Origin: Paraspadella gotoi
Lineage: Eukaryota; Animalia; Chaetognatha
NCBI GenBank assembly: GCA_051294375.1
Contig: CM119270.1
Location: 9,797,530-9,861,529, forward strand
Reading direction: 5' to 3'
Length of the DNA: 64,000 nucleotides
This document shows positions 5,201 to 56,022 of the stretch, one piece after another. The notes beneath the pieces are model-generated. The model searched no databases, was not told the DNA's origin, and was given only the letters and a program-made list of their open reading frames with translations. Every line of letters starts with the position of its first letter. The first letter of the stretch is position 1. The position numbers and the translations under genes were made by a program.

Positions 5201-6962
5201 ATTTGGCGATTTAGCTGTGAACTACATCTAGCGTTCTGGTTATGGCGATTTCGCCTAAACTAAACGCAGATTAGGGTTATGGTTAGGGTTGAGATGGTTT
5301 AGGGTTAGGGTTGAGTTGGTTTAGGGTAGTAAAAATTCTAAATTTAACTTTAATTAAAATTTAAAAGTGGAGGAACGAAAAAAATTATTTTACTAATGAA
5401 CATTTATGTAATAAAAAAATTTCTAATAATTTTACAAATTACGCAGTAGAGCCGATATTTATACTAGACTAAAATCCAATAATGTTAAAATTTAAAAACA
5501 TTTTTTCTAGATTTTTTGCAGATTTGGATTCGTCATATAAAGTTGGTAAAAGAATATAAACTCTTTAAAATCTTTATTAAGTGGGTCAAAAATTAGAATA
5601 AGCTATATTTTTAAGCTAAAATTAACTTATTATATATTATTAAATATAGGTTTTATATTTTAACCCAACTTATATGGTAAAGAATTTTTTAAAAATGATT
5701 TATATTTCTTTTCTATCAATTTTGACCGAGGAATTCAAATCTGCAATCAAAAATTAAGAAAAGCCTATTTTTGAAATTTTTCGGATTTTATATTATATAT
5801 TTTATATATTACTATATATAAAATGGCAGGTGATTCTATTCGGGTATTTTCAACAATAAAATTGAAACTATATATAACTATTATTTTTTTTATTCCACTG
5901 ATTAATATAAAACACGCTTTATTTAAAAAAACGGTTGGCTATAGTTATTTTCTCCTTATAACATCGAACTTCACTGGGTGAATTTCTATGCTTTCAAAAT
6001 ACGGTAAGACAGTAATTTCTTTTACCTTAAGATGAAACTAAAGCGATTTTTTAAGGTAAGGCAACTTTTAAAGATTAAATTGCTCGTCAGATCTATTGCG
6101 TTTTTTAGATATACTACAGCTTAGGCAAAAAAAACGAGCGCCGCGAGCTCCTCCCAACCCATAGGATTCGGGTCGTCCCCTGCTGATTCACAAGGAGAAC
6201 AAATGGTGAACTCCTCTCGGCATCGTCTTCTACATTGGTGAGCCCACAATATATATATATTTATTATATATATAAAATTAAAAAAAAAGAGAGAGAGAGA
6301 GAGACAAGAGAGAGAGAAAAAGAAGCAGGACAGACCGCTGCAGAGCCAGAACTCGTTTTTAGACAAATCAGAAGAGCAGTGACTGAGTAGATATCGCTCC
6401 CCGCTGAGAAAAAGAGAGAGAGGGAGAGAGCGACATATAATTAAAAGAAAGAGAGAGAGAAAGTGACGTATAATGAAAAGATTTTTGTTTTGTAAATAAA
6501 ACAAACAAATACGAATATTGATATGAAACATGACAATTTTAAAGATCTTGATGATTAGAAGCCATATATAAATTTTCAACTACCTATGATATCACACTTT
6601 CAGAAGCCATGATTGCAAAAAAGCGTGACGCCGACGACGACGACGTCACAAAGAAGGAACCCTGAATGGTAATGGTAATTCGATAAAAATATCGAATTCG
6701 TGGGCCAAAAGTTGTCATGTTGCAAGAAATGATTCCAATGAAACCAATTCGTCTTGACTCGAGGACAGCAGTCAAGGTTGGACGCAAGGATGTATTTCTT
6801 CGTCTCTTAAATCGAAAAGGAATTCTCCGCAGTGGGAGGGACGCAATGGCGGGCCGGGGGTTCATAGGCGGTACCGCCATCCTGACGGCAGTGAGCGCGA
6901 TACGGGGGAAATTCCTGTCGTTGGTTCCGTCGCTCGAGACCGTAGAACCGGAAAGGTCACGA

Positions 6963-8299: not shown

Positions 8300-10273
8300 A
8301 AAGAGAGTCCCTTACCAGAAGAGCAAAACTGATTCCGTCGACCCCCGAGCTTCAGGCCGCTGAGCCGTCAAAAGAGCCTTGGCGATCAATAGTTACTCAT
8401 TGTGGGCCTTCGAGAAGGCTAGGTATCGGCCGCGTCTGGCTGAGGGCAGTGGCCACCCAGGGGCTGCCAAGTAGCCGCTAACGCAGACTCCACCTCCGCC
8501 CCCCAGGAGGTAGGAAGGAAGCTTGCTGCTGAAGAGCTGACTGCACCCACCACAGCGCATCCAGATGAAAAGCAGAAGCAACCTAGGAACGTGGGTCACC
8601 TGTCCCTTCCCTACCACCAGGGGATCACTGAGTCATTGGTGCGGTTGGTAGCAAAGCAGGGGATCTCCACCTCAGTGACGGCCCGCGGCTCCCTATGTGA
8701 GCATCTGGTGAAACCGAAAGATAAAATCCCCAGACCAAAAACATCAGGAGACGTCTACTGGGCGGCCTGTGCAGGGGCGGGCAACCAATCCTGTGCAGCA
8801 GCATATATGGGCAAGAAAGGCAAGTCCCTCACAAACTGTTTCCAACAGCACACAATACCATATCCTGATGCCCATGGACACTACCTGTCCTCAGTCGCTG
8901 GCCACTTAATCAGAGAGTCAGACTGTCTCATGCTGTCCCATGACCCAAACTAGTTCTCAAGAGGTATTAGAGAGGCAATCTACATCAAAGCCCTCGAGCC
9001 CTATTTGAATCGTGATGGAGGACGATTCGACCTCCCTTCAAGCTATGATTCGCTTATTAAAAGCAATGGGCAGGCGATGCCCCTCCCTCAACTGTAGCAA
9101 CTCAATCCCTCTCTCTGGGTAATGAGCGTCGCCCAAAACAACGGCTACAGGAGAAGGGAGAGGAGTCCACCACTCCTGTCGCTAAAGCAGCAAGAATGGA
9201 CAACCGCCCACCTCGCCAGTAGGCGAGAAGAGGGCAGTCGGCAGGTGTAACAGGCCAGAGAGACATTCGAGTTGCACTAGGCCTCTTCCCTCAAGGAAGT
9301 CTCCCCAGTGCAGCATTGACCAGCTCATCCGAATTGTCATCTCAACCAATGACCCGGCCTCATCGCTCAAGCCTTTAATTTGCAAAAACCAAGGGGAGCC
9401 TGCTAATTTTGAGATCTATCTTAATACTTTTATGTCACTTATATCACTTAACTATCCCTCAGCAAATGTATCTTTTCACATTTAAAAACTTTATTTCTTT
9501 TCAAACTATTACTATTATTAGTCGGATCTGCTTATAAGCAGATCCCGACTCTTTAATTCACTTTGTCGGTCCGTCGATCCGCCCCTCAATCTGGTCGGAA
9601 ATTAACTTATTTCATGTCAGAACATCGAATTATGATAAAAAATAGAAAAAAAATGTTGTCTGTCCGTCCATCTGTCCGTCTGTCCGTCCGTCCGATTGGA
9701 ATGAAATTTTGTGTGTGGTTAGGGAAGTGTGTGATTGAGCTGGATATGAAGTTTCGATGGAATCATCCCAGTGGAAATGAGTTTAAATGGAAAAAACAAA
9801 AAAATATATTTCAATATTTGAACACCAATTACTTATGAGTGGATGGGACAATTGACCTGAAATTTTGTTTGCAGGTAGGAAAGTGTGTGATTAAGTTGGA
9901 AATCAAGTTTCGATGGAATCCTTTGAGTGGAAAAATGGAAAAATGGAAAAAAACAAAAAACCTGTTTCACTAATTGATTATGCTTCTTTTTCTTTTTATA
10001 TTAAATATAAATGCAAGATGTATAAATTAATCAAATAATTAATCAGTTAATTAATCAATTAGTCAATTAATTAATCAATTATTAATTAATCAGTCAATTA
10101 ATAAATCAATTATTAATTAATTAATTATTAATTATTTAATTACCGATAATGATCGTGGGCAGATCCGACATTGTTTGTTCAAACTTGTTTATTTATTTAT
10201 TAACTGTTAAATCACTATTATTTAGTCTAAAAAAAATTTCTTGTTGTACAATGCACAATGTATTACTTTGCCC

Positions 10274-15100: not shown

Positions 15101-18100
15101 TTCAGAAAAGAAAATTTTTTTTTTATTTGTTTAGATAAAAGAAAGAAATATATAGAGATATAATTTCAAGAAATAAAAGAAAGGGAAAAATATGTTACAA
15201 TTGTTTACAATTGGAAATTTTTCCAATTTTTTGCAATCATAGCTTGTAAAAGATTTTATTTTTATTTGTATTAAAATTAAGATATAGCTTCTCATTAAAA
15301 AGGTCCTTTGAGTTCCCATTTTTATTAGAGATTTAAAAAATTTTTTTTGAATTTCATCTTCAATATTATATACTGCAATATGTAAATTAGAATATAGCAT
15401 TTCTATATACTAATTTGGATATTATAATGAGTACTATAATCTCATTTGCATATTGCAGTAAATCATAATGAAGTGGAAATTCAAACCAAAAATACTTAAA
15501 TCCAAATGTAATAAGAAAATATCAAAGCTATTTCAAGATGAGAAGCCATATCTAAATTTTTAACTTACTATGATCGCACACATTTGTAAAACTTTATCAT
15601 AATTCATAATAATTTTTATTAAAAAAAAACGGTAAGTCACAGCCAAACCTATAAAAGCGTAGTAGTTTTTATATAAAAACAGCGTGACACCGACGACGAG
15701 GACGACTACGACGTCACAAAGAAGCCTGGCCTTAACATTATAGAGCCAGGACCAGGCTGGAAGGGCAGAAAAAAAGGAGAGAAAAGAAAGGTGGAAAGAA
15801 GGAGGGGAAAAGAGAGAAAGAAAAAGAAAGAAACAGAAGGGTATAAACTATAAAGTTAGGCGAATAAAGAATAAGAGAGATTAGGATAGAAAAAAGATTG
15901 GGGTTGATAATAAAAAAGGAAAAAAAAACATTGAAAAAATGGAGAAGAGAGAGAGGGGGGAAAATATGGTGAGAAAGGGAGAGGAGAATAAGAGAGGACG
16001 GAAAAAAAAACTTTTCTTTTAAAAAATTAAACATTTCCTAACAAATAATAACAAAATCGTATTTGAAAATTAACCGAATTTAACCGTTAAAATAAATATA
16101 TTAACGGTTAAGTTAAAATTATAATTAATTAACTGCCTAATTAATTAATTAATTAATTAATTAACTTGAATAATTTAATTAATAATTAATTACCGATAAT
16201 GGCAGATCCGACATTGTTTGCTCAAACCTGTTTCTGTAATACTTAGAAGAGAGATAGTAGGGGGTGTCTAATATAGAATATATCAAGTTCTCGTAAGGTT
16301 TAATTTGACTAATCCCTGGCCTTAAATGGAAAAAAAAATCTATTTCACTATTTGAACGGCAATTACTAATAAGTGAACGGGGCGAATTGACTAGAAATTT
16401 TGTATGTGGGTAGGAAAGTGTGTGATTAAGCTGGAAATCAAGTTTCGATGGAATCGTCTGAGTGGAAATGAGTTTAAATGGAAAAAACAAAAAACCTGTT
16501 TCACTAATTGACTATGCTTCTTTTTCTTTTTATATTAAATGTAAATGCAAGATGTATTAATTATTCAAATAATTAATCAGTTAACTATTCAATTAATCAA
16601 TTAATTAATAAATAATTAATTAAGAGTTCAAATAATCAATCAATTAATTATTCAATCAATCAATTTATTTAGTTATCTATTAATTAATTATTAAATCAAT
16701 ACATTTATTTATAAATTAATTAATTATAAATTAATCAATCAATCAAGTCAATCTTTATCGGCATTATTGTCGTCATCACCATCATCGTCGTCATTGCTTT
16801 TGTCGTGATCAGTGAGGAAAAGACCTAAAAATAAACATTTCGGATCAAATTAATGAATTTATTAATTAAATTATTATTTTAGTTTATATAGTTTGTATTA
16901 ATTAATTAATTAATTACCGCTAACCACTGACTTAGTCAATTACAATATACATTTCCCCGTCCTTACTTACTTAGATTCAGTCAGACCTACCCGACCTTAG
17001 TTAGAGCAGTGTACACCAATCACCAATGAATCCAACTGAACCCCACCTGCGCTTCCATGAGCTTCTTCTGCACGCCCCTCACGTCCTGGACGTACTGGCC
17101 CATCATGTCCATTTCGCAGTAATCGTTAAACTCTTCGATTCTGTTCCTCAGCTTCTCCAAGTCGCCGGTGACTCTGTCCCGTTTTTCCGCCAGCGCCTCT
17201 TCGAACCCCAAGCGCGCCTCCTCGCAGATGGAAGCGTTTTCTTCGAAGATGGGCTGGATCTGACAAAGGTTGGGTTGAAGGATTTAAATGCCTGGCAGAT
17301 TTAATAAATAAAATGATTGGATGATTAGATAAAAGCTTGATTGAATTATTTAATTTATATATTCATTCTTTTATTGTTTGATTGATTGACTGAATTTTTA
17401 GTCGGATCTGCTTATCAGCAGATCCCGACTCTATAAATCACTTTGTCGGTCCGTCGGTCCGCCCCCTCAATATTGTCGGGCACTAACTTATATCATGTCA
17501 GAACATCGAATTATGATAAATTATGCAAAAAAAAATGATGTCCGTCCGTCCGTCCGTCCGTCCGTCCCACCTTAGATTAAAAAACACCAATTACTCGTGA
17601 TTGGATGGATGGATTTGAATGAAATTTTGTGTGTGGGTAGGGAAGTGTGTGAATAAGCTGGATATGAAGTTTCGATGGAATCGTCCGAGTGGAAATGAGT
17701 TTAAATGGAAAAAACAAAAAAATATATTTGTGGATAAGGCGCTACGTGGGATGAAGATGACTGTCCGTAACTTCTATAACCCCCTCTCGCAGCCATGGAA
17801 CGGGTCCCTGGGCTTGGAACCAGGCTTGAGGGTTTGCCATGCCCCCAAGGGGGCTTACGGCCGTACTCACGCTTCCCGCAGGGTAGGTACCGGGTTGGGA
17901 TTGAACCCGGTACTTAGTGGTCATGAGCTGATGGCTTTACTCAATGAGCCACCGGGTCATAACTGAAAGTGTCATGATTCTAGGCAGGGTGAACCTAGGC
18001 AATGCCCGACTACATATTTTACTATTTGAACACCAATTGCTCATGAGTGGATGGGGCGATTGACCTGGAATTTTGTATGTGAGTAGGAAAGTGTGTGATT

Positions 18101-21100
18101 GAACAGGAAACCAAGTTTCGATGGAATCGTTTGAGTAGAAATGAGTTTAAATGGAAAAAAACAAATAACCTGTTTCACTAATTGATTATGATTTTTTTCC
18201 TTTTATATTAATTGTAATTGCAGGATGTATTAATAAATAAAATAATTAATCAGTTAATTAATCAATTAGTCAATTAATTAATCACTAATTAATTATTCAG
18301 TCAATCAATCCGTCCATCCGTCCCACCTTAGCAAAAAGCCCCAATAACTCGTGAATGGCTGGTTGGATCGGAATGAAATTTTGTGTATGGGTAGGAACAT
18401 GTGTGATGAAGCTGGATATAAAGTTTCGACGGAATCGTGTGAGTGGATTTGAGTTTAAATACTCTAATTAATCATAATTGGATGGATAGATTGAGTTCAA
18501 ATTTTGTGTGTGGGTAGGAAAATGTGTGACGAAGCTTGATATAAAGTTTCGGTACGAGTGGAAATGAGTTTAAATGAAAAAAATATGAGTCACATTTACT
18601 TGACTCTTTTTACTTATTTTAACGCATAATAGATTGAGATGAAATTTTGTGAGCGGGAAGGAAAGTTTGTGAAGAAGCTAGATATAAAATTTTGACGGAA
18701 TTGTGCCAGTGGAAATGAGTTTAAATGGAAAAAATATAAGTCACATTTACTTTATTTTAAGGAAATCGATGATGATAAACTGTATATAAATTTATAATTA
18801 ATTATTAAATATTAAAATTAATTAATTTATTAATTAATTAATCGATTAATTAATTAATTAATTAATTTTCGTAGGCAGATCCGACATTGTTTGCTCAAAC
18901 TTGTTTTGATTGGCGACTTGTTGTTTACTTGAATTTCCAGTCAAATCTTGATTCATGGATTTATTTCCTTCTGTCTTTCTTTCTTCATTCCTTCTTTCCT
19001 TTCTTCTTTTTTCATTCATTCCTTCCTTCCTTCCTTCCTTCCTTCCTTCCTTCCTTCCTTCCTTCCTTCCTTCCTTCCTTCCTTCCTTCCTTCCTTCCTT
19101 CCTACCTTTGATGGCCAAGTCAATACACGACTGTTGATGTCGATTTCTTCGGGCGAAAACATGTAGACGTCGACGAGATATCGCAATCTGTTTAAGTATA
19201 AAAACATTTATAAAATCGATCGAAATTAACTATTTGATTATTTAATTAATGAAAAAATAATATATTTTTTGTTTTCCGTTTCATCCTCAGCCAAGTGCCT
19301 GACCTGTTCTGCGCCTCCTGTATCCTCTGGTTGAGGAATTGCAATCCCTCCTCCTCCACCTGCTCTATGAACTCCATCATCTCCATCATATCTTCAGTGT
19401 CTTCTGGCGTCTTGAGCGCCTTGGCGCGGATGGTCTCAAACTCGCGGCAGATGCTGCAAGAAAAACGGCAATTTGGGGGCGGAGGGAGCAGATTATGTTG
19501 TGGCCTATTACAAATGAGATCTCATTTGCATATTGTCGTGTTTTGATGAAGTAATTATAAAAATTTATTCTGGTACAATAAATGTTAGTACAGTATAGTT
19601 TAAACTTATCAATTGCAAGGAAAAAGATTGAGAAATAATTTTAAAAAAATATCAATTTCATCAACAAAAATAATTGTTATTTTGTTGAAGAGTAGGTGCA
19701 AGTGAAGATCTAGTGGGTGCAGCTAAAATTTATCTTATATGTTCCTTTGTCTTACAAAAAGCTTTCTTCTTTGTAGAGCCCTTTAGTACAATATGGTGAA
19801 AATACAAAAAAAATTTTATGGGACTGTTCTTATAGGAGAGAAGATAAGTTAAGTAACCGGAAAAACCAGTAGCTCCACCAATACATATAAATCACTTTAA
19901 AGGGCTTAAACTGAACTGTTATTGTGGCACTAATATTATTTTGGTACTTGCAAAAATATTTTATAAATCAAAAAAAATTATTTTTGTTTCGAAGTATAAT
20001 TTATGATTAAAATACTTTTATAAAAACATAGAATAAAAAATAGAATAAAATAAAATAAAATGAGAAAAAAATTTTTGTTGAAAAATATCAAAAAAATAAT
20101 TTTTAAAAGATTTAAGATAATAACTAGTTTGAGCAAACAATGTCGGATCTGCCCACGATCATTATCGGTAATTAAATAATTAATATTTAATTAATAATAA
20201 ATTATTTCAAGTTAATTAATTAAAAAAATAAACAAAAAGATATAATTTTTAAAAATAAAATTAATTTTTTTTTAAATCTTAGAATCTTACAAAAAGAGAG
20301 ATGAGGAAGGTATAAAAACTTTACTTTAAAAATAAAAAATCGGTGATTATTTTTTTTAATTAATTAATTAATTAATTACCAATAATGATCGGTGGGCAAT
20401 CCGACATTGTTGCTCAACTTTGTTATTAATTATATGTGGATTTAAAATCCACCCAACCGTTCATCAGCGCCATTGGTGCCGGAGGCAAGTCATCACCTCC
20501 CAACCCAAAGGGTCGGGTTCTAGCCCAGTGGTGCGTCTGGCAGTTTAAGAGGGACGGGGCGCTTAACCCGCCTGTAACATGGTGTTACACGCCTGATCCG
20601 AAGCTCAGGGACTGCTTATATTGAATGGTTCTGTCATTAACACATATCAATAATTACTGTCTCTTCATTGGTGAGCCCGACTTCCGAACACAACAGCAAA
20701 CAACAACACTTTCAGGCGACATGCCTCAACCTGGCGATGCACTTTCCGCCCACAACACATCAGGCGACATGCTTCAACTTGGTGACAAACTTTCCAAACT
20801 AACAACAACAATTCACTGAAGGAGACGAGCAGCAGACTTCTCCCTATCGGAGGGGGGATGTATGGTGGACTAAAATCCACACAACCGTTCATCATGGCCA
20901 TGTGTGCCGCGAGGACAAGTCATTCGCCTCCCAACCCCAAAGGTCCGGGGTTCTAGCCTGGTGGTCGCCTAGCAGTTAAGAGAGGACGGGGCGCTTAACC
21001 CGCCTGTAACTCGGTGTTACAGCCTGATCCGAAGCTCAGGGACTGCTTATATTGAACGGTTCTGTCATTAACACTTATCAATAATTACTGCTCTTCTTCA

Positions 21101-24100
21101 ACTTCTATATTTAATTCTTCATTTGGACAAGTACATACTTGGAGTTGTATCACTAATAAGTCTAAAACAAACTACTCTACAACATTTTCAGATGGTTTTT
21201 TATGCTTTTATTGAGCTTAACAAATTTTTCGAATTTATTTCAATTTGACTTTTTACTTTATGAACCAATATAAAAAATTATCCAATTCATTTAATAAATA
21301 AAGCTATCTTGCCCCTGACTTGGACAGTAAGGCTAGTAAGAATTCCTAATTTCACTTTATTAAAATTCTATAAGATAATAGTAAGGAACGAACAACATTA
21401 TACTAATGAACCGTTCAATATACAGCAGTCCGCTGAGCTTCGGATCAGGCTGTAACACCATGTTACAGGCGGGTTAAGCGCCCCCCGTCCCTTCTTACCT
21501 CGCTCCAGACGACCACCAGGCTAGAACCCCGGACCTTTGGGTTGGGAGGCGAATGACTTGCCCTCCGGCACCAATGGCCGCTGATGAACGGTTGGTGGAT
21601 TTTAGTCCACCATACAATAAATGTTAAAATTTCAAACAGTTTTTTTAAAGAATTTTTTTGGCCAGATTTGGATTCGTCATAAAAAGTTGATAAAAAGAAA
21701 TATAACTCTTTTTGAAAAATTCTTTCATTAAGTGGGGTCAAAAAATTAGAAAAGCTATATTTTAAGCTAAAAGAAAACTTAACGTTTTTTACATATTAAA
21801 TATAGTTTTTTAAATTTTGATCCCACTTAATGAAAGAATTTTTAAAAGATGATTTATATTTTCTTTTATCAACTTTTAACATGCCCACTTAGTTCCCTTG
21901 TGGGCAGTGGGTTTCCGCTTTCATCTGTGGTCAATAAATAAGTGGAGCGGTGTGGGCTGTAAATTTGTTAGTCTGAGTCTAGTGGCCGCTGTGTCCGGAT
22001 GCTTAAAATATTGGGAAGTGATGATTGGAAGTGATGATTGGGGAGGTGATTACTGAGCTCCCTTCTGGTTATTTCTCCCGTTTATCCGTGTCTTTTGTTG
22101 TGTTCTTCGGCGTCGGTTAATAATTGTGAGGTATGTTTTAATTTCTTTGAATATTTTAATTTTTAAAATGGGATTTTTTTCGTCCCTTTTTTAACTAAAA
22201 TAAACAAAATGGAGACTAGTAACACTGATTGTCTCTGACCGGTCCAGGAGTGGTCCCCATCTGGGTCATAACCAATTTAAGGGGGAGAGAGGAAAAAATA
22301 ATTCCCTCTGCTTAAGGTTTTTGTCCAACCCTAAGCCTTCATCTTGTACCTCCTTATCTGTCCCCGCATTCTGTAGACCTCCCATCTTGTTTCTTTTGTT
22401 TTTTAGAAATTGTTCCTCCTTTTCCACCCCCCGTCCCCGCGGTCTCTGTCCGCTTTGCAAATCCTTTTGCCCAGTTCTTGATGCGGCCTTGAATCTTTGG
22501 GTGGAGAAAGAGGAGGAGGAGGAATGAAGAAGAAGAAAGGTAAGGAGGAGAAGAAAAGAAAAAGGAGGAGGAGGAGGAGAAGGAAGAAGAAAGGGAGGAG
22601 GAAAGAAGAAGAGAAGGAGGAAGGAGGAAAGAAGAAGAAAGAGAGGAGGAGGAGGAAGAAGGAGGCGAGAGGAGGAGGAGCAGAAAGAAGAAGAAGAGGA
22701 GGAGGAGAAAGAAGAAAGAGGAGGAGAAAAAGAGGAAAATCTGGAAAAAAGGAGAAAATTTTCTTTTTTTTTGGAAAAGATGGTCGACAAAAAAAAAGGG
22801 GGGAATGAAAAATTCCGGAAAACCGGCCCGAGTGGAAAGTGGGTCTCTCTCTCTCTCTCTTTCTCTATCTCTGCTCTCGTTCGCTCACTCTCTTTCTCTC
22901 TCGCGTCTTTCTCTCTCTCCTCATTCTCCTTTCGCTCTCGGGTGATGTGTCGAGGACTACCAAAAGTGATTTACCAGAAAAAAAAGAGCCGGACGTTCGA
23001 TTCTCCTGTGCGGAATAAAGATGGGAATGTATCTTCGTTTGGAGGCGTGGCCCTTTACCTGGGGGAGGTTCAGGTCAATGTGAAAAAAAAAAGAAAAAAA
23101 GAACAAGAAGAACGGTGATTTCTAATGTGTTGCTGGGGGGCGGGGCGCCGCAGTGACTTTATTATATTCATGTTGGGTAAAGTTTCCCTTAATCACAATA
23201 TGACATAACAAGACAAATGACTAAACGAAACCTTTCTTTGGCCGTGGTATTTATGCACCTGCACTCAAAAATTCGTCTTTTATTACCTTAATAGTTTTTT
23301 AGCGATTTCCTGAAGGCGGCGGCTAGTTAGTCCTTTAACATTCTTGAGTTTTAATTTACTGTCTTTAACAAAAGAGGCCCTCCAACTATAGGGAAATTAT
23401 ATGTATTTTTTTAAACGGTAACGTTGGGACCAGACCGATAGCAGAACAAGACATACCGAACAGACCGACGCCGGTGAAAAGTGACTTATAAATTTTGCTT
23501 TCCTGCGGAATGCTCTTCTCTTGGCGCAACTACAATAAGAAGGAAAGGAAATAAAGAATGGATCTTCTCTTGTCGAAAGTGGGCGGATTCCCCTGAACTT
23601 ACCTGCAGGGAATTTTAGGGGTTGAGTGAAGAATAAGAGAGATGGAAAAAAAGAGAAAAGTAAAAAAAAATGTTTGTCTGTAAAGGAAACTTNNNNNNNN
23701 NNNNNNNNNNNNNNNNNTGGGCAGATCCGACATTGTTTGCTCAAACTTGTTATTATTATAGTGGATTAAAATCCACCAACCGTTCATCAGCGGCCATTGA
23801 TAAATATATGGTCTTAATTAAGAGTGCATATGGGGATAATAAATCAACTGTAATTATTCAATTCAGATATCTTTCAATTATTTTAGGTTTTATCTATTAA
23901 TTAATTTAATTAATCAATTTACATTTTTTAATAAATTAAAATTAATTTAAAATTAATCAACCTTCAATCGGGGAAGGTCAATCTTTATCGGCATTAATTG
24001 TCGTCCATCACCATTCATCGGCGTCATTGCTTTTGGTCGGTGATCAGTGAGGGAAAAGACCTAAAAAATAAATCATCGGATCAAATTACATGAGAAATTT

Positions 24101-27100
24101 ATTAGAATTTAAAGTTATGTTATTTTTAGCCTTATATAGGTTTTGGTATTAATGGAGTTAATTAATTAATCCCGGCTAACGACCACTGGACTTAGGGTCA
24201 ATTACCATATACATTTCCCTCCTTACTTATAGATTCAGTCAAGACCACCCGGACCTTTAGTTAGAAGGCAGTGGTACACGCAATCACCCAATGGAATCGC
24301 CAACTGAACCCAAAGTGCTGCTTCTCCATGAGCTCTTCTGCAACGCCCCTCTAAGTACTGAATGCGTCCTGGACGTACTGGGCCCCATCATAGCAGTTCC
24401 ATTTTTCGCAGTAATCGTCTGTAGAACGCTTCGATTCTGGTTCCTTCAGCTTCTCCAAGTCGCCGGTGACTCTGTACCCGTTTTCCGCCAGCGCCGTCGA
24501 ACCCCTAAGCGCCCTCTCGGCGAGATGAGCGTTTTCTTCGAAGATGGCGAACTGGATCTGAAGCAAAGGTTGGGTGAAGGATTTAAATGGCCTTGGCAGA
24601 TTTAAATAAAATAAATGATTGGATGAATAGAATAAAAGCTTGACTGAATTATTTAATTAATAATTCATTATCTTTTTCATATGTTTATTGACTGACTGAT
24701 ATTTTTACGAGTCGATCTGCTTATCAGCAGATCCGACTCCTATATAATCACTGTGTTGTGCGGTGCGCGCGGCGGGTCCGCCCCCTCAATCACCTGGGCT
24801 CGAGAGAATCGGGATATCATGTTCAGGAAACATCGAATTAAGTGATATATAATTAATGCAAAAAAAAAAATGATGTCTCGTCCGTGTCCGTTCCGTCCGT
24901 CCGTCCCACTTAGATTAAATAACAGCCGGAAAATTACAAGGATGATGAGGATTTAGGAATGAAAATTTTGTGGTGTGGGTAGGAGGAGAGTGTGTGTAAT
25001 AAGCTGGAATAAGTTCGGATGATCGGTCGAAGTCACACGATAATGAGTTTAAAATGGAAAAAAACAAAAAAAATATAATTTGGATACACGGCTATCGTGG
25101 GTGAAGATGACTGTCCGTAACTTCTATAGATCCCCGGGCCGTCTCCAGCCATGAACGGGTCACGGTCTTTGGATCCAGGCATGAGGGAAGCATGACCCCA
25201 CACACACACGGGGCTTAACGCCGACTCACGCTTCCGTCAGGTAGGTACCCCAAAAAACAAAAAGGGAAGATAATAGAGGAAATTAAGAAAGAATATATAT
25301 ATATAGAGGTACAAAAGAATAGAAGAACAAAATAACATCACAAGAAACACCAGAAAACAAAAAACTAAAAGGTGTCCATGAAAACTAAGACAGAGAAGAG
25401 TGAAACCACATAGGAACAAAAAAAAATGCCCGACTACATATTTTACTATTTGGAAACAGCCAAATTGCTCATGAGTGGATGGGGCATTGACCTGGAATTT
25501 TGTAATGTGAGTAGGAAAAGTGTGTGATTGAACAGGAAACCAAAAGTTCGATGGAATCGTTTGACGTAGAAATGAGTTTTTAAATGGAAAAACAATAACG
25601 CTGTTTCACTAAATTGATTATGATTTTTCCCTTTTATATTAATGTAAATGCAGGATGTATTCATAAATAAAATAATTAATCAGTTTAATTAATCAATTAG
25701 TCAATTAATTAATCACTAATTAATTAAATTCAGTCAATCAATCCGTCCATAGCCGTCCCACCTTAGCAAAAAGCCCCAATAACTCGGTGAATGCTGGTTG
25801 ATCGAATGAAATTTTGTGTATGGGTAGGAACATGTGTGATGAAGCTGGATATAAAGTTTCGACGGAATCGTGTGAGTGGATTAGAGTTTAAATACTCTAA
25901 TTATCATAATTGGAATGGATAGATTGAGTTCAAATTTTTGTGTGTGGGTAGGAAAATGTGTGACGAGCTTGATATACAAGTTTCGGTACGAGTGGAAATG
26001 AGTTTAAATGAAAAATATGAGTCACATTTACTGACTCTTTTAACTTATTTTAACGCATAATAGTTGAGAATGAAAAATTTTGTGAGCGGGAAGGAAAAGT
26101 TTGTGAAGAAGCTAATATAAAATTTTGACGAATTGTGCCTAGTGGAAAGAGTTTAAATGGAAAAAATATAAGTCACATTTACTTTATTTTATAGGAAATC
26201 GATGAGTGATAAACTGTATATAAATTATAATTAATTATTAAATATTAAAATTAATTAATTTATAATTAAATTAAATCGATTTAATTAATTAATTATTAAA
26301 TTTTTCGTAGGCAGATCCGACATTTGTTTTGCTAACACCATTGTTTGATGGCGACTTGTGTTACTTGAATTCACAAATCTTGATTCATGGAATTTATTTC
26401 CTTCTGTCTTCTTTCTTCATCTCCTTCTTTCCTTTCTCTTTTTTCATTCATTTCCTTCTCCTTCATTCCTTCTTCTTCCTTCCTTCCTTCCTTCCCTTCC
26501 TTCCTTCCTTCCTTCCTTCCTTCCTTCCCTTTCCTTCCTTCCTTCCTCCTACCTTTGATGGGCAAGTCAATACACGACTGTTGATGTCGATTTCTTCGGG
26601 CGAAAACATGTAAGCGTCGACGAGATAATCGAATTCTTTAAGTATAAAAACATTTATAAAAGATCGATCGAAATTAACTATTTGATTATTTTAATTAATG
26701 AAAAAATAATATAAATTTTTGGTTTTCCGTTTCATCCCTCAGCCAAGTGCCTGACCTGTTCTGGCGCCTCCTTATCCTCTGGTTGAGGGAATTGCCAATC
26801 CTCCACCTCCACACTGCTCTATGACTCCATCATCTCCATTCATATCTTCAGTGTCTTCTGGCGTCTTGAGCGCCTTGGCGTGGATGGTCCTCAAACTCGC
26901 GGCAGATGCTTGCAAGAAAACGGCAATTTGGGGGCGGAGGGAGCAGATTATGTTGGTGGCTATTACAATAAGAATCTCATTTGCATAGTTGTGTGTTTTG
27001 ATGAAGTAATTATAAAAATTTATACTGGTACATATAAATGTTATACAGTATAGTTTAATTATCAATTGCAAGGAAAAAGAATTTGAGAAATAATTTTTAA

Positions 27101-30100
27101 AAAAAAATATCAATTTGCATCAACAAAAAAATTGTTATTTTTGTTGAAGAGTAGGTGCAAGGAAGATCTAGTGGTGAGTCAAAATTTAATCTTATATGTT
27201 CCCTTTGTCTTACAAAAAGCTTTCTTCTTTGTGAGCCCTTAGTACAATATGGTGAAAATACAAAAAAAATTTTATGGGACTGTTCATTAATAGGAGAGAA
27301 GATGAAGTTAAGTAAGCCGGAAATACCAGTAGTCCACCAATACATATAAATACTTTAAAAGGGCTTAAACTGAACCTGTTTATTGTGGCTAATATTATTT
27401 TGGTACTTGCAAAAATACTTTATAAATCAAAAAAAATTATTTGTTGTTTCGAAGTATACATTATGATTAAAATCTTTTATAAAAACATAGAATAAAAATA
27501 GAATAAATAAAATGAGAAAAATGAAAAAAATTTTGTGAAAAATATCAAAAAAAATAATTTTTAAAAGATTTAAGATAATAACCAGTTTGAGCCAAACAGA
27601 TGTCGGATCTGCCCATCGATCATTATCGGTACACTTAAATAATTAATATTTAATTAATTAATAAATTATTCAAGTTAAATTAATTAAAACAAATAAACAA
27701 AAAGATATTAATTTTAAAAATAAAATTAATTTTTTCTTTAAATCTTAGAAATCCCTACAAAAAGCAGAAGATGAGGAAGGTATAAAGGAAACTTACTTGT
27801 TAAACCAAATAAAAATCGGTGGATTCTTTTTTTAATTAATTAACTTAATTAATTACCACATAATGATCGTGGGCAAAGATCCGACCATTGTTTGCTCAAA
27901 CTTTGTTATGATTATATGTGGATTTTAGAATATCCACCCAACCGTTCATCAGCGTCCACTTGGGTGCCGGCAAGGCAACTAAAGGTCCATTCAGCTTCTC
28001 CAACCCAAACGGGTCGGGTTCTGCCCAGTGGTGCAGTCTTGGCCAGTAAGCAGTGGGACGGGGCCCGCTTAACTCCCGCCGCTAAGCCTATCGGTGTCTA
28101 CACGCCTCATCGAAGCTCAGGGACTTGCTTATATTGAATGGTTCGGTTCATTAACCACACATTATCAATCAATTACTGTCTTTTCATTCGTGAGCCCGAC
28201 TGTCCGAACACAACAGCAACAACAACATCTTCAGGCGACATGCCTCAACCTGGCGATGCATTTCNNNNNNNNNNNNNNNNNNNNNNNNNCGCCCACAACA
28301 CATCAGGCGACATGCTTCAACTTGGTGACAAACTTTCCACTAACAACAACAATTCACTGAAGAGACGCAGCAGACTTCTCCCTACGGGAGGGGGGGATGT
28401 ATGGTGGACTAAAATCCACCAACCGTTCATCAGTGGCCATTGGTGCCGGAGGCAAGTCATTCGCCTCCCAACCCAAAGGTCCGGGGTTCTAGCCTGGTGG
28501 TCGCCTAGCAGTTAAGAGGGACGGGGCGCTTAACCCGCCTGTAACTCGGTGTTACAGCCTGATCCGAAGCTCAGGGACTGCTTATATTGAACGGTTCTGT
28601 CATTAACACTTATCAATAATTACTGTCTCTTCAACTTCTTATATTTAATTCTTCATTTGGTACAAGTACATACTTGGAGTTGTATCACTAATAAGTCTAA
28701 AACAAACTACTCTACACATTTTTCAGATGGGTTTTTATGCTTTTATGAGTTAACAAATTTTTCGAATTTATTTCAATTTGACTTTTTACTTTATAAAACA
28801 ATAATAAAAATTAATCTATCAATTTAACTAAAATAAGCTATCTTGCCCACTGATATTTGGAACAAGTAAGATGGTAAGCTTAAAATTCCTAAATTCAACT
28901 TTACTTAAATTCTAAAGTAGGAAGAAAAATTTACCAATGAAGCCGTTCAATATAAGCAGTCCCTGAGCTTTTTTTTTTTCCCTTTATTGTTTTTTTTAAA
29001 TTTATTTTTGCGCTTTTTCATAAAAAGAAGCTTTTTCGCGTGGTGGGGGGGGGGGGGGGGGGTGGGAGATTTTAGACTAGACACTCCACTTCTTGTTTTT
29101 CAAATACCAAAAAAACCCCCCCGGAACCCAAATACAAGCGGCGGGGAAGGGACCACCCACCTCCCCCCTCCCTTTGGGGTGGGGGGGTTCCCTTTCCCGC
29201 GCGCGCTGGGGGGGCGGGCCCCCCTTTGTGGGGGGGTGGTTCCGCGCGGGTGTTGTTTTATGTGGGTTTTCGGGGTGTTTCGTGCTCCCCGGGACGGGGG
29301 GCTTTTTTTTTTTCTTTTTCACCTTTCCCTTTTTTTTCGAAAGACTTAACAAAACCTCCGACTCTTAGCAAACGTTGGGGGTTTTTTTTTTGTGTGGTGG
29401 GCATTCCGCTCCACTTCTCCTTTTTTTTGGGGGAGTGGTCCCTCCCGGTGGGTGGGGGGGGGTTGTTTCTTATGTTCTTCAATATTTTTCCAAGCCACGG
29501 GGAGGGGGACCCCGCCGTCCTCTTCCTGCCCGACGACCACCAGGCTAGAACCCCGGACCTTTGGGTTGGGAGGCGAATGACTTGCCTCCGGCACCAATGG
29601 CCGCTGATGAACGGTTGGTGGATTTTAGTCCACCATACAATAAAAGTTAAATTTCAAAACAGTTTTTTTAAAGATTTTTTGCAGATTTTGGATTCGTCAT
29701 AAAAAGTTGATAAAAAGAAATATAACTCTTTTTGAAAAATTCTTTCATTAAGTGGGTCAAAAATTAGAAAAAGCTATATTTAAGCTGAAAATTAACTTTT
29801 TACATATTAAAATATAGTTTTTTAAATTTTGATCCCACTTAATGAAAGAATTTTTTAAAAATGATTTATATTTTCTTTTTATCAACTTTTAACGAGGAAT
29901 TCAAATCTGCAATCAAAATTAGAAAAGCCATTTTGAAATTTTTCGATTTTATAAGGATAGTACTATATATATATAGCCTATTGCAAAATTAAAAAACATA
30001 AAATTAATTTTTTTTACAAATTAATGTTCACTGATGGTATGTTGTTCAAAATTGACTTCTAGAATTTTGAATGCAACTTCACTACGCCTTATTGGACAGG

Positions 30101-33100
30101 CTTGGTGGTTTAAGGCCTCCATCACTCTTACAAAATAATGAAATAGCAGGTCCCTGCAAGCTTTCAATCAAGACTTCTTCACAGTCTCGTTTATTCACTC
30201 CCAGAGTACTGGCTTCCTATAAATGAAGTGGTATTATTTCAAAGAATGTTTCAATTGTTATAAGACCACTCCTTAAGTATTAGATCGAGAATACTTATTG
30301 TACTTCACACTGTAGTCGGGCATTGCCTAGTTCACCCGCCTATAAGCATGACACATTCAGTCCTGACCCGGTGGCATCATTGAGTAAAGCCATCAGCTCA
30401 TGACCACTAGGTACCGGTTCAATCACAACCCGGTACTACCCTGCAGGAAGCGTGAGGACGGCCTAAGCCGCCTTGGGGCATGGCAAACCCTCAAGCCTGG
30501 TTCCAAGCCCAGGCGCCGTTCCATGGCTGCTAGAGGGGTTATAGAAGTTACGGACAGTCATCTTCAGCCCACGTAGCGCCTTATCCACACTGGTGAGCCC
30601 ATCCTGTCGAGCTATATCCAACCTTCTGATTCCAGGCCCATGGACGTGCTGAGATTGCTCCCCTCCCTCACTGGAAGCAGTGCAAGGGTGGGTTACAATC
30701 TCGGGGGCTTGTCTCGGCGCATTGCCTAGGTTCACCCGCCTATAAGCATGTACACCTTCAGTCCTGACCCGGTGGCTCATTGAGTAAAGCCATCAGCTCA
30801 TGACCACTTAGGTACCGGGTTCGATCCCAACCCAGTACCATTCACCCCCATTCCCGTCTGGGAAAGCGTGAGGACGGCCGTAAGCCGCCCTGTTGGCATG
30901 GCATACCCTCAAGCCTGGTTCCAAGCCCAGGGAGCCGTTCCATGGCTGCTAGAGGGGGTTATAGAAGTTACAGACAGTCATCTTCAGCCCACGTAGCGCC
31001 TTATCCACAGCACTAGCATCAAAATACAAGGAGCTGAATTTTATGAAATTGGTACAACCAATATAAAAATTATCCATTCATTTAATAAATAAGCTATCTT
31101 GCCCCTGACTTTGGACAGGCTTTGGTGGTTTAAGGCCTCCATCACTCTTACAAGATAATGACATAGCAGGTCCCTGTAAGCTTTCAATCAAGACTCTCTC
31201 ACAGTCTCGTTTATTCACTCCCAGAGTACCTGGCTGTAAATGTTTATATCATAAAATAGTTGCCCTATTTTCTAGGGAATCTCTGAAAAAAAATCAAATC
31301 TGAATTAAAAAAATTAAGATACGGTGTTGAACAAACTCCGTCATCACATCCCGTGCTTGTGTATGTTGTGGTGAATATTGCAAAAGTAATGAGTACAGAA
31401 TTTAACTTTCTTGACGAAGTGAAGTTAAAAACGAAGAGTTGCAGCTCAAACCACAGGATTCTTCTTGAAGAAAAAAATATCTTGGGCAAGAAAGAAAAGG
31501 TGGGGGAGATTCTATGAGCGCGATTTTGGAAAAATGTTTTTCGTTTCAAAGATATCAAGGAATTTTTTCATAGAATTGGAGTTCGTGACCTAAAAGTAAT
31601 CCATGCCAAATTTCATGAGAAACCGCTTTACCGTTTGGGCTGCAACTCTTCAAATAGGTTTCTTTTATTTTATATAGTACCAAAAAAAAACGAAAAAAAC
31701 GATAACGCCTTTGAAAAAATAGTAAAGTGAATACATTTTCGGAATCGCCAGGAGCTATCCTTTCGAAATCCGAGCTCGGTTTTAGCCTAATTATAATTTG
31801 AATTGAGTGATCCCGGACCTTAATCACAAACAAACAATAAAAAAGAAAGTCAAATACAATGGTAAAAACACCATACAATTTTAATGGGACTGTTCTTATA
31901 TTTCAGAAAAAAATATCAAAACCTTTGGTGGATACACTTAAATTAAATTTTATTGCTATTTCGTTTTTAAAAATGGTAAGGTTACGGTTGGTGTTGTAGA
32001 AGACGAGTGTTTATACAGCTATCTGGTTTATTAAGACTAAAACATGTAAAAATTTGCAAGTAAAGATCTAGTGGGTGCAGACAGAAGAGCAAATTTCTAT
32101 AGAAAGTAAAGGGAAAATGCTCATAGTAGAGAAAGTAAGAGACAAATCCTTGTAGGAGAGAAGAAAAGTTTAGTAATTTCACTAAAGTTATTTACAAATA
32201 CTATATATAGAAAAAATGTACAATTTCGGGGGGTAAGTAAATCACTAAAGTTATATACAACAATTGTTTTAAGTAACCGGAACAAAAAAAAATTGAAAAC
32301 AAAAAAAGAAAAAGGAGAAAAATGTACAATTTCGGCGGTAATTCTTTTTTACCTGAGATTTTCTTCCTTGTGGTCGTTGGACACCTTCTTCAAGAGGACG
32401 TCGGCCAAGCCACGGGCCGCATCCGCCAAACCGCGCTTAAGATCATCGCAGTCGAGACGAATCAGGTCGAAGTGCTCGATGGAGGAAAGACCAGAGATCT
32501 CTCTCCCGATGGCGCTGAATCGCTCGATAAACTGGAAAGGGAGGAAGTGATGGAATGGAAATGAAATGAATGGAGAAATGAAGGAATGAAAGAATGAATA
32601 AAACGAATGAATGAATAAATAAATTATTAAATGAACGAATGAATTAATAATGGAATGAATGAATGAATGAATGAATGAATGAATGACGATAAAACTAAAG
32701 TTTAAATGAAGGAACATATGAATGAATTAAGAAATGGACAAATGATTAAATTTCTAAACGATTGAATAAGATATGAATGATTGATCAAGTTGAAAAGCTT
32801 CTCACTTGGCAATACTCTTGAAAAGAGTGCTCTTCTTCCATAAACTGATCGATTTGCGATCTCGCCTCTCCGTTCACGATGTAATCGTATCTGAAATTAA
32901 AACATCATTGGTCACCCTTGTTGCCATTACTGTCATCCTCATTCTACTTTTTATTTTTTCACTATTTCAAATGTAATGTTATTTTATTACTTTTTTTAAT
33001 CAATTGAGTTCTAAAAATGATTTAATGATAAAATAACGTTGAGTCGTTTCTGCAGTTACGTGATCACCTCTCCTTGAACGTCTGCAGATGTTCCGAGGGC

Positions 33101-36100
33101 GCGACGAAGTAGTATTTACAGGCGGACTTCAAATTCTCGATCGATTCCGTGATGATGTGAGAGGCTACAGTGGCGTCCGTGTAGACCGGATTACCGCCAC
33201 TCAGCCATGACTGTACAGTGGGCACCGCCTGCATCGTTTTAGTCACCTGAAGAGGGGGGAAAATCAAGAGGGAAAGCTTTCGGAAATTGAAAAAACGACT
33301 CTCGCTCTCTCTCTGAATAATTACTGTCTCTTCAGGTTAAAGCTGCGAAAAATGATCAAAACGTTTTATCATATAATAGTTTCTATTTCAAAGGGTAATA
33401 AGTGGAGAATTTGACAATTTTTTTCCATTTTTGACGCTGAAGACATTGAAATTTTTAATAACATATTTTATATTTTTGATCTAAATTTTTATGAAAAATC
33501 AGAATCTTTAATAAAAATAAAAAAAAAAAAAAATTTAAAATTTATGATTTTATAAGAATATTATTATAAATATATCGTAATTAATGATACTATTCCCCAA
33601 ACAATATAAGCAAAATATTTTTTGTACTCCTTAATAATACTATCTCACGTCTAAATATTCTTGTTTGTTCACTCAAATAAAATTTATGTTCCCCAGTGCT
33701 CCGCTCTCAGTAAGAACGAATTAAACACCTTGTGGATTCAGCGTTAAGATAATTGAAAATGATGAATTCGACGGCGATAAAAATGATCGAGAAAATTATT
33801 GCAAAATTCTAACTTCCCAAATCTACATCAACAAACTTAAGAGAGGATGTTGTTGACTACGGAGTAAATCGTTCTCCGCTCACCGCGTCTTCTTCAAATC
33901 GTAAATCGCCATGAAGGCGAAAAGCCCTGTTGACGATGCCATTTTCAATGTCAGTGCAAACCCTGCCTTCTGCGCCGTTGCCAACGGGTCGCGGCCTAAT
34001 AATCAAGCGTAAAAACTTATCTTGTGCTCCGGCTGCAAAGAAGATCATTTCATTGCCTCCTGCCCTTCTTTCCGAAACTTAAATTCCGATTCAAGAAAGA
34101 ACTGCGCCGTGCATCTACGACTTTGCTTCCGTTGTTTAAATGGTGGGCACATTGCTAAAAACTGTTGGTCCGAGCGCCATTGTGGTGCTTGTGATAGGTT
34201 GCATCACACTTCGCTTCACGACTCTTTTGGTGGAACAACGCTACTGCCTTCAAAAGGAACATTTTCCACAGAATCAAATAAACTCGTCGTGGAGAAAACC
34301 ACCGACCCATTGAATCTCTCGACGCCAGCTCAAGAAGCACCAAGACCCGCGGACCCTACCGCAGAGTTTGAAAAGCCAAATCTAAAAGGAAAATCTCCTT
34401 CCTTGTCATCGGAGCCTTCAGTGACACCAACATTGTCGAGTTCAAAATCTGTATCAGCGTCACCTTGGTCGACATCGTCATCCCTATCAATTAAGATAAT
34501 TCGACCGGCTGAGGCAAAGCCGCGACCAAAGATAACAAGAAAATATTTTTGTATTACCTGTTTAGCAACAGATCACAACCAAAAACACTGTAATATTGTT
34601 AAAAAGGTTCGTTCTAATTACAATAGTTAGTACTTTTATGTTTAAGTATTATGCGGTTTGTAACTAACCCATTTGTCACTTTTCCATATTTTAAATGTCA
34701 ACATCTTTATAGATTGTCAATATCTTTATGTTTATTGTTTAACCTATATTGACAAGAGGGGGAGTAAAATATGTTAGGCTTGCCTCTGTTCACACTAAGG
34801 ACGTTTTTGATAAATAGTATCTGGTCTCTTTCTTACGCCTCAATTTCCGAGAGTTTCGCGAGGCGCGTTTTAGATTTCTATTGAACTCTCACCAAAATTG
34901 TTCGCCCGGAGAAACTTCGTTCTTACGAGTATCAAATATTCGATATCTACTTTTACTTTGTCTTGTGCGACTCAAGTTAGTACATTTCGTTACGGGCGAA
35001 TCAACGACATTGGTCTCCGCGGGCGCAAAGTCTCAAATAACTTTACACCATCCCAGGCGTAGTGTTCCATCCACACTGTTCCATCCACATACCTAACGAC
35101 TTCCCTCTGCGTTGGCAAAGCGAGACCGCCCTAGGGTAACCGTTCCAGTGACTTGATGCATCACTGAGGGTTGGAAGCCCCCAAAGCCAACAGTGAGTTA
35201 CCCCATCCCAATGGGCATCACAGGCAACTCGGCTGTTGCCATAAGTGGTGAGCCCTACTATCGAACACGCAACCTTCTCAGGGTATGCTACGACAAACGC
35301 CTATGCCCTGCCGACTTTGGGTACGCTACGACAAACGCCTATGCCCCTGGGGTACGCTACGACAAACGCCTATGCCTTCACAACTCGCGCTTTCTCTCTC
35401 TCCCACTATGGTAACAGTGAGATGGGCATCACAGGCAATCCGGTTGTTGCCATACCCCGTCATTTGATCGGATGATGATGACTCGCGGAGAGGAAAGTGG
35501 ACAAACGACAGAGCTAATTAGTTTGTGGGGATCGGGACAAGTAGTCATCATTGCTAATGGTGATCGGGACTCTTTAGAGTGAGTATTGACCTTTTAAACC
35601 GTCGCTATACTTCAAAAAGTCGAATTGTTTTAGCCGTGATGCGTTTAATCTCCGGCTATCCCGGTTTTTTTGGCTTAAAGAGAGGGCTCATCACTGAAGT
35701 CTTCAGTGAAGGGAACGATTTGAGCGGGCCAGTGAAAGGAGGTCCTCTAGTGAGATGCCCCCTCGACACTGACATTTACAACTCAAAGCCATCACTAACT
35801 TGTGTGATTAGTAGAGTGATCAATTCTTGCAAGTCCTGGTAGGGTGGGTAGAACTGCATTTTTTCGTCATCAAAGGTAAGTTCCATCTTCAGGGTAGGGA
35901 GCTTTTTGTTGTCGTCGCTGACTTCGAAGGCTTCTACCCAGGAGCGAATCGTGCGCACCAGCAAGTCTTTCAACTGTAGTAAAAACAAAGGTTGATCAAA
36001 TAATAATTTATTATAAAGTAATTTGATTAATTTGATTTGATTAATTAATTATTTAATTTGATTAATTCTAATCAAAACAAGATGTCTCATCCACACTAAC

Positions 36101-42442: not shown

Positions 42443-42521
<79 letters not shown>

Positions 42522-55788: not shown

Positions 55789-56022
55789 TATGGTGGACTA
55801 AAATCCACCAACCATTCATCAGCGGCCATTGGTACCGGAGGCAAGTCATTCGCCTCCCAACCCAAAGGTTCGGGGTTCTAGCCCGGTGGCCGCCTCGCAG
55901 TTAAGAAAGACGGGGCGCTTAACCCCCCTGTAACATGGTGTTACAGCCTGATCCGAAGCTCAGGGACTGCTTATATTGAACGCTTCTGTCACTAAGACAT
56001 AACAATTATCACTGTTTCTTCA
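55789..56022 (+). mobile_element. Family-A solo LTR
   Basis: TATGG...CTTCA, 234 bp, perfect 4-bp TSD CAAT. Confidence 0.85.

Follow-up and report, generated by a model that had tools for sequence, protein, structure and literature searches.

Whether animals have counterparts of the plant long terminal repeat (LTR) retrozymes, in which a self-cleaving motif lies in each LTR of a non-coding retroelement, is the question raised by a 668-bp element at positions 20433-21100 of a stretch from the chaetognath Paraspadella gotoi. This stretch, called the window here and used for all numbering, comprises 64,000 nucleotides (GenBank assembly GCA_051294375.1, contig CM119270.1, 9,797,530 to 9,861,529 of the forward strand). 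The element belongs to a high-copy family, termed family A, and both of its LTRs carry a fold of the type-P5 twister ribozyme with an unusual, palindromic P1. The reading to which we give slightly better than even confidence, modelled from these features, is that of an element transcribed by RNA polymerase III (Pol III), in which the twisters of the two LTRs would form one double ribozyme and a unit of about 430 nt, once circularised, would serve a CsRn1-type Gypsy element as template. The parts of family A in the window are as follows.

20433 to 20667, plus strand: 5' LTR with TA...CA ends, bounded from target-site duplications (TSDs) and Logan loose ends
20436 to 20452, plus strand: small hairpin opening the LTR, in its U3-like part
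20467 to 20534, plus strand: tRNA-like segment, a predicted Pol III promoter, with the B box GGTTC at 20516
20540 to 20615, plus strand: twister fold of type P5 in the 5' LTR, with a predicted cut at U20564/A20565
20558 to 20563, plus strand: P1, the self-complementary hexamer GGCGCU with zero loop
20668 to 20860, plus strand: non-coding interior, 193 nt
20669 to 20681, plus strand: primer-binding site (PBS) TGGTGAGCCCGAC, of the tRNA-Trp type as in CsRn1-clade Gypsy elements
20713 to 20737 and 20761 to 20785, plus strand: 25-nt direct repeat inside the interior
20849 to 20858, plus strand: polypurine tract (PPT), followed by a 2-nt spacer
20861 to 21100, plus strand: 3' LTR, a noisy copy
20972 to 21046, plus strand: twister fold of the 3' LTR, P1 20990-20995, predicted cut U20996/A20997
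27915 to 28633, plus strand: second assembly of the 20433 locus; its 3' LTR (28400-28633) holds the cleanest twister, 28508-28581, with P1 at 28525-28530
55789 to 56022, plus strand: solo LTR, TSD CAAT/CAAT, twister with substitutions in P2 and T2
45030 to 45248, plus strand: solo LTR, TSD of GAAG type, decayed twister; the locus is also present at 37814-38029
21408 to 21616, minus strand: 3'-truncated LTR; the locus is also present at 29515-29639

An earlier note on this DNA had described a non-coding LTR-PBS-interior-PPT-LTR element of about 670 bp and solo LTRs with 4-bp TSDs. All of these parts were located, and the TSDs were recovered as CAAT/CAAT, as a GAAG type and, in a second family, as AATA/AATA. 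The GAAG-type locus, assembled twice (37814 and 45030), reads AAAG/GAAG in one copy and GAAG/GAAT in the other. Family A LTRs begin with TA, not TG, and TA...CA ends are non-canonical; the sister families begin with TG. The TA start was adopted because the TSDs fit that start alone, and Logan loose ends agree with it, numbering 133, 34 and 14 at 28400, 28399 and 28398 and 102 and 72 at 28633 and 28634 in run X1, a spread that one-base extension by chance would produce. The elements at 20433 and 27915 share both flanks and are a single locus assembled twice, so that the window has one independent full copy of family A. The family matched 10,397, 2,366, 2,693 and 1,064 Logan contigs in four of four runs, which are contig numbers and not copy numbers, and the summed Logan depth on its interior was about one fifth of that on the LTR, again not a copy number.

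The twister was parsed with twister numbering and with the review PMC5408937. Both LTRs have the order P5-P2'-GA-T1-six nucleotides-UAA-P2-T2-P3-P4-L4(UCCGAAGC)-P5. In the copy at 28508-28581, singled out as the cleanest by the earlier note and confirmed here, the parts are P5 GCAGU, P2' GAGG, GA, T1 CGG, GGCGCU, U/AA, P2 CCC, T2 GC, P3, P4 CCUGA, L4 UCCGAAGC, P4' and P5', with a predicted cut at U28531/A28532. A scored descriptor gave seven window matches of at least 13, one of them mis-parsed in a decayed copy, and ten dinucleotide shuffles gave none at 12 or above and three at 11; the twister fold is therefore not explained by chance. The descriptor also found the fold in three further repeat families of the window, named I, X and Y, to which a tentative family Z is added.

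30311 to 31009, plus strand: family X, second full LTR-PBS-interior-PPT-LTR element, 699 bp, with a tRNA-like head and PBS 30591-30600
30858 to 30937, plus strand: family X twister, P1 CGGCCG; cut-to-cut distance 417 nt
17729 to 18014, minus strand: solo LTR of family X, TSD AATA/AATA
57784 to 58020, minus strand: family I, a diverged LTR after a PPT remnant, with a tRNA-like head; twister 57826-57899, P1 GGCGUC
31098 to 31155, minus strand: family Y twister, P1 AGGCCU; the repeat around it lacks a PBS and has further copies at 30083-30135 and 49286-49342
35110 to 35192, plus strand: family Z, tentative, a degenerate twister whose P1 is the 8-nt palindrome CCCUAGGG; a PBS follows at 35246; found by eye, 7.4 bits with model R1

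Families A and I are about 75% identical over 118 nt, and X gave no BLAST match to A; the full copy of family X matches in three of four TSD letters. A 5' LTR fragment of family I at 6144-6250 (plus strand) has kept the PBS and has its twister region deleted. The family Y repeat, without PBS or tRNA-like head, occurs at 31020-31235, 30092-30214 and 49226-49422 on the minus strand, with fragments at 21263-21327 and 28796-28861. The letters upstream of it resemble what we take to be the end of a Penelope-type open reading frame (ORF), and the repeat is possibly a pseudo-LTR twister. Outside the window, the 1097-nt metagenome contig L012 has a 123-nt terminal repeat, that is, a circular or tandem unit of 974 nt, with one twister of palindromic P1 and bulged P2 (388-445, minus strand), and contig L068 holds a palindromic-P1 twister variant (58-115, minus strand) downstream of an ORF end (706-1004, minus strand). 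That ORF had no Pfam match; its end presumably resembles Penelope-like elements.

Covariation among these families, a check that the earlier note had named, was found across the four window families and the two outside contigs, and together with the descriptor it bears out the type-P5 twister proposed for each LTR, including the L4 loop of the form TNNNAAGY. In families A, I, X and Y all 60 cells at 15 pair positions were paired, and across six representatives (the four families with L012 and L068) 89 of 90 were, with two-sided changes in T1, T2, P2, P4 and P1. In the latter set P4 was paired in 24/24 cells, P2 in 17/18, as two plus one pairs flanking a bulge, and the pseudoknots T1 and T2 in 30/30, with two-sided changes at T1.1, T1.3 and T2.1; the conserved GA, (U)AA and L4 U..AAG residues were all present. 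MAFFT alignments misplaced the whole of Z as well as P4 and P5 in Y, L012 and L068, and these helices were therefore counted from the descriptor parse. Logan variants at 4% or more fell at three places in the 74-nt twister as against 12 in the remaining 160 nt of LTR sequence. Two of the three are at the P3 loop, within it or next to it, and the other one, at 28566, breaks a T1 pair; the common variants leave GA, UAA, P1, P2, T2 and P4 intact. A covariance model, R1, was built from these twister copies, and its scores on them are not evidence; a scan with it gave no further family, the candidate at 8987-9044 being rejected. No hammerhead core was found on the sense strand of the family LTRs.

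Several observations weigh against the twister assignment. The Rfam search suggested by the earlier note left family A without a twister match at E<=10, an outcome which that note had named among those that would refute its reading, and the sister families and L012 scored below the gathering threshold of RF02684 (37.6 bits), at 16.9 bits for X, 25.8 for Y and 24.2 for L012. P2 consists of three pairs and a bulge, where four pairs are expected. The families share ancestry, so that the pairs are not fully independent, and two outside examples were found. The T1-breaking change at 28566 accounts for 2-7% of depth, with no compensating change listed. With these points weighed, the fold is, from the sequence comparisons, almost certainly real and under selection, and the ribozyme is predicted with good confidence to be catalytically active.

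The peculiarity of this twister lies in the six bases between T1 and the cut, which are GGCGCU in A, GGCGUC in I, CGGCCG in X and AGGCCU in Y. Each P1, that of the tentative Z included, is self-complementary up to its centre and thus forms a helix without a loop, and such a palindrome cannot close as a hairpin inside a single copy. Rfam's own alignments of X, Y and L012 likewise show three P1 pairs with a 0-nt loop. In a ten-row alignment all 30 P1 cells were paired and all three pairs changed on both sides, a count inflated by related rows; the P1 covariation score was 0.748 as against 0.190 for shuffled rows, and slid controls were 28-57% paired. The central dinucleotides (CG, GC and AU, and UA in the tentative Z) are all self-complementary, which counts for a duplex because a hairpin loop would not need them.

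A blind test pointed in the same direction. Sequence collections were scanned with P1 left as N6-8, and 278 matches were listed (101 viral and metagenome, 57 prokaryote and 120 viral). Among these, two had P2, P4, T1 and T2 intact, L012 (CAAUUG) and L068 (AUGCAU), and in both P1 is a perfect palindrome; the background among the matches listed was seven palindromes in the other 276, or seven in the 154 of even length. For these two contigs P1 alone is independent evidence. Among the matches listed for the viral contigs (5, 2 and at least 120) and the prokaryote genomes (57), none was a fully paired example of the variant, and L145, L072/L037/L183 and L026/L039/L079 were rejected as twister variants, with P2, P4 or T1 unpaired. 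As a control, seven phage loci with clear canonical P5 twisters, out of 39 matches, all had long P1 hairpins; the remaining 32 were type-P1 twisters or chance matches.

The simplest reading of P1, by analogy with hammerheads of palindromic stem III, would be a 6-bp helix between two copies that have swapped their 5' strands. The swapped dimer was computed to lie 7-16 kcal/mol below two twister-shaped monomers in six of six cases. Other results, in all of which pseudoknots were unscored, count against it: the swapped dimer was better than two freely folded monomers in one of six, free dimers folded 9-21 kcal/mol lower than the swapped form, and unconstrained folding of the native transcript gave the cross-LTR P1 pairs a probability of 0.0. 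P1 is also dispensable in other twisters, so monomers may cut anyway (PMC5408937, PMC8501958), and dimer artefacts have been noted in one twister crystal (PMC5408937). On balance we lean towards a twister that would work mainly as a dimer. The twister fold and the LTR-retrozyme-like layout of the earlier note stand, with strong support from covariation, and its two independent ribozymes become less likely, the palindromic P1 shifting the probable mechanism to one dimer.

The second component of the LTR is the tRNA-like segment, which directly precedes the twister in families A, I and X. In it, 44-45 nt separate an A-box-like motif from the GGTTC box that follows, and A and I also show an acceptor-like stem. 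The A-box motif TRGCY is present in X, partly present in I and absent from A. Sense-strand T4 runs are absent from A, X, Z, I and three solo LTRs, the noisy duplicate at 27915 having two, whereas only 25 of 1268 windows of 670 nt are free of T4; a GC content of about 50% accounts for part of this absence from the elements.

Elements with the tRNA-like head probably belong, as far as their sequence indicates, to the Helenus/TRIMp3 class of miniature terminal-repeat retrotransposons (TRIMs), with which they share a length below 1 kb, in each LTR a tRNA-like segment whose B box reads GGTTC, 4-bp TSDs in animals and a Gypsy-type PBS; in wasps Helenus also has a tRNA-Trp PBS, as in family A (PMC10886601). 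Most published animal Helenus LTRs, read by eye in the supplement of that paper, extend little beyond the tRNA-like part, in most cases closing behind a T-run, unlike family A, in which about 130 nt including the twister follow and T4 is absent. Twisters in the known zebrafish or Nasonia Helenus LTRs were considered and were not borne out on reading the sequences by eye, nor was a twister seen by eye in the animal Helenus LTRs of the supplement as available. The word "twister" does not occur and no ribozyme is named in Helenus in the available text, and Pol III transcription of Helenus itself is unvalidated there (PMC10886601). In two tRNA-Trp-primed wasp LTRs of that supplement, Helenus-2_SyJa-LTR and Helenus-2_SyUm-LTR, a type III hammerhead with complementary loops was recognised by eye after the tRNA-like part (CTGATGAG...GAAAC), which goes unmentioned in the accessible text; from their sequence, these two are likely animal hammerhead LTR retrozymes.

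Between the predicted cuts of family A lie 432 nt, in agreement with the unit of about 430 nt, holding PBS and PPT, that the earlier note had predicted. The minimum free energy (MFE) and centroid structures of this unit both pair its two ends, and cross-LTR P5 and P2 pairs bring the ends together in folding predictions.

The proposed mechanism has as its observed basis the layout, the fold, the palindrome, the lack of a sense-strand T4 run and the many copies with 4-bp TSDs. Pol III would start about 30 nt into the 5' LTR and meet no terminator, the twister occupying the usual place of the Helenus T-run. The P1 segments of the 5' and 3' copies would then form a 6-bp helix with each other, and two cores would arise as the copies exchange their short 5' strands (P5-P2'-GA-T1); this dimer is proposed because of the P1 covariation, and its two cores are likened to those of double hammerheads. 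Cuts at U/A would leave 5'-OH and 2',3'-cyclic phosphate termini, as established twister chemistry has it, and the P5/P2 pairing could hold these ends for an RtcB-type ligase. The circle, like solo-LTR transcripts, would hold a single copy and cut poorly, and would for that reason persist. Reverse transcription primed by tRNA-Trp could go round the circle without a first strand transfer, as has been proposed for plant retrozymes (PMC4918200), and the integrase of a partner element would insert the product. That the circle acts as the replication template appears, from this analysis, marginally more probable than that it does not.

A number of points speak against this mechanism. The 432-nt unit is no more structured than its shuffles (z -0.04; as a circle, z -0.9), the unit of family X reaching z -2.2 against mononucleotide shuffles. 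No TSD flanks the full copy at 20433 (ATTA vs ACTT), whose LTRs are 88.7% identical to each other and 91.7% to the clean 28400 copy, with differences at subfamily-type sites; lacking a TSD and with such LTR identity, it is old or recombinant. Against the analogy with plant retrozymes drawn in the earlier note stand the unit, which is not unusually structured, and the LTRs of this copy, which differ. The family A box departs from the Helenus consensus, and neither ARAGORN nor Rfam gave a tRNA match for the tRNA-like segment. One backward-going joint in the DNA runs was set aside and does not count as evidence for a circle.

Some of these points would be expected if the twister merely replaced the Pol III terminator, an unlikely rival, in which cutting is left to the 3' copy, the 5' copy being slow or misfolded, and a terminal repeat of about 100 nt is kept for ordinary strand transfer, with no circle. 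The twister sits, by eye, where most published Helenus LTRs have their T-run, the unit is unstructured, the 5' copy is misfolded in the MFE structure, and ordinary LTR replication with recombination would explain the solo LTRs and the unlike LTR pairs. The two copies are, however, near-identical and a swapped dimer makes two equal cores, so both should cut, and plant retrozymes of the same layout are cut at both ends and circularise (PMC4918200).

It is likewise improbable that each LTR twister folds and cuts alone, its six bases forming one pair and a tetraloop, before the unit is released and circularised. Such a monomer would leave unexplained that, in six of six families and contigs, double changes have preserved the self-complementarity of the inner four bases; one-pair tetraloops were computed at +4.1 to +5.6 kcal/mol as against -6.3 to -10.7 for the duplex, and an always-active single copy would reopen the circle. 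On its side, deletion of P1 leaves a near wild-type rate (PMC5408937), one closing pair with a 4-nt loop could span the distance, and the 5' copy, transcribed first, would be able to fold alone. Very improbable is an inert passenger, a tRNA head and ribozyme of short interspersed element (SINE) or Penelope origin captured once into an LTR and functionless, for although a SINE insertion has been proposed as the origin of Helenus (PMC10886601), the same variant occurs in non-LTR contexts (family Y, L068) and several window copies have decayed, A, I and X are strongly diverged yet keep every helix by compensatory changes, and the common Logan variants spare GA, UAA, P1, P2, T2 and P4.

The double twister of a Pol III-driven element, to which the argument returns, can be set beside several known systems. 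With the plant LTR retrozymes (PMC4918200), family A shares the non-coding LTR-PBS-interior-PPT-LTR arrangement, 4-bp TSDs, a self-cleaving motif in each LTR, Gypsy-type PBS and PPT and many solo LTRs. It differs in having a twister and not a type III hammerhead, an animal host, a tRNA-Trp and not a tRNA-Met PBS, and an internal tRNA-like promoter. Its unit of about 430 nt is not highly structured, whereas that of plant retrozymes is, at 600-1000 nt (PMC4918200); its ribozyme is predicted to need two copies, unlike theirs, and its circles are only predicted. With the type-P5 twister RF02684 it shares P2, P4, T1, T2, GA, UAA and the L4 loop U-NNN-AA-GY in P5 order, and it differs by the 6-nt palindromic, loop-less P1, the 3-bp bulged P2, and scores of 17-26 bits or nothing against the gathering threshold. 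Family A would work like an LTR retrozyme and, being without a hammerhead, is not a member of that class as defined; in its ribozyme we see a variant twister that falls outside Rfam's model.

A minimal palindromic stem completed by two tandem copies is likewise known from Penelope-like elements and non-LTR retrozymes, in their dimeric type I hammerheads (PMC6765202, PMC7761336), which are of another ribozyme class, family A lying in true LTRs with PBS and PPT. Twisters of the Schistosoma retroelement Perere-3, a long interspersed element (LINE), also have a weak or missing P1 (PMC8501958); there, one copy lies at the 5' end of a non-LTR element, and it is flanking sequence, not a palindrome, that completes P1. 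The Tornado system has the order twister-insert-twister with ends joined by RtcB (PMC13622603) and, unlike family A, is engineered and leaves its ribozymes outside the circle. RTE elements have been mentioned as twister carriers, and twisters occur in viroid-like circles and RNA viruses.

The literature searched held no twister LTR retrozyme, animal LTR retrozyme or natural dimeric twister, in line with the earlier note, which knew of no twister-bearing LTR retrozymes in animals; short-P1 examples may exist in Repbase, in the 2014 twister alignments of the original description or in subscription journals, which lay outside this search. In the accessible part of a July 2026 preprint (10.64898/2026.07.22.740005), retrozymes are still defined by hammerheads, and LTR retrozymes are primarily of plants.

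If the proposed reading is true, twisters would gain a defined biological job, LTR retrozymes would be known in animals as well as in plants, and a link would be made between two separately described classes, the Pol III-driven TRIMs and the retrozymes. A two-copy twister would be a new ribozyme architecture with an on/off logic, active in the precursor and quiet in the circle, useful for circular-RNA engineering. The case also marks a blind spot, in that Rfam gives no score at all to a family that accounts for thousands of contigs in a single run. More tentatively, and with less than even confidence, a wider picture may be drawn: a natural class of obligate double twisters that would serve as a copy-counting switch in Pol III-driven animal LTR minielements, with a stable, RtcB-sealed circle as template for a Gypsy reverse transcriptase (a natural Tornado cassette). 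It may have spread over other retroelements and small circular or tandem units, missed by Rfam, the ribozyme module being swappable, as the hammerhead of the wasp Helenus would suggest.

The enzymes would be supplied in trans. The PBS of family A equals the consensus TGGTGA(G/C)CCCG(T/A) of the CsRn1 clade, Gypsy elements with 4-bp TSDs and a tRNA-Trp PBS (PMC2582038), and is one base off the complement of the bee tRNA-Trp in Fig. S2 of PMC10886601. From this sequence match we infer a CsRn1-type Gypsy element as the partner copying family A, and the window holds one candidate.

42332 to 42560, minus strand: LTR, without a twister, of a longer element that has the same PBS (42329, a longer match) and ORF fragments behind it; candidate autonomous partner

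The ORFs behind the 42329 PBS had no Pfam match, the one searched for homologues gave none, and the element stops at an N gap; among these ORFs no CHCC Gag or Pol was recognised.

The window as a whole is AT-rich, microsatellite-rich and noisy, and includes dynein heavy chain exons (PF08393, a weak match). An animal host is in keeping with the intron-bearing dynein gene, the Penelope-type minimal hammerheads and the CsRn1-type PBS. Some stretches appear twice with indel noise, about 7.3-7.5 kb apart (about 16400-23000 vs 25600-29700, and 37800 vs 45000), probably through assembly duplication, by which the repeat counts in the window are inflated. An ORF fragment at 8444-8953 (plus strand) had no Pfam match; we take it to resemble the GIY-YIG endonuclease region of Penelope. 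Minimal type I hammerhead cores of the Penelope kind (CTGA.GA...GAAAC) lie at 1893 and 10517 on the plus strand and at 8154 and 13812 on the minus strand, and a ribozyme like that of hepatitis delta virus, cut off by the window end, lies at 63945-64000 on the minus strand (28.4 bits with the drz-agam-1 model). Among the phage contigs, L123 and L133 each carry two tandem type-P1 twisters 50 nt apart, and in L112 and L130 type-P5 twisters come in pairs, spaced by 280-360 nt, every one of them lying just ahead of a start codon.

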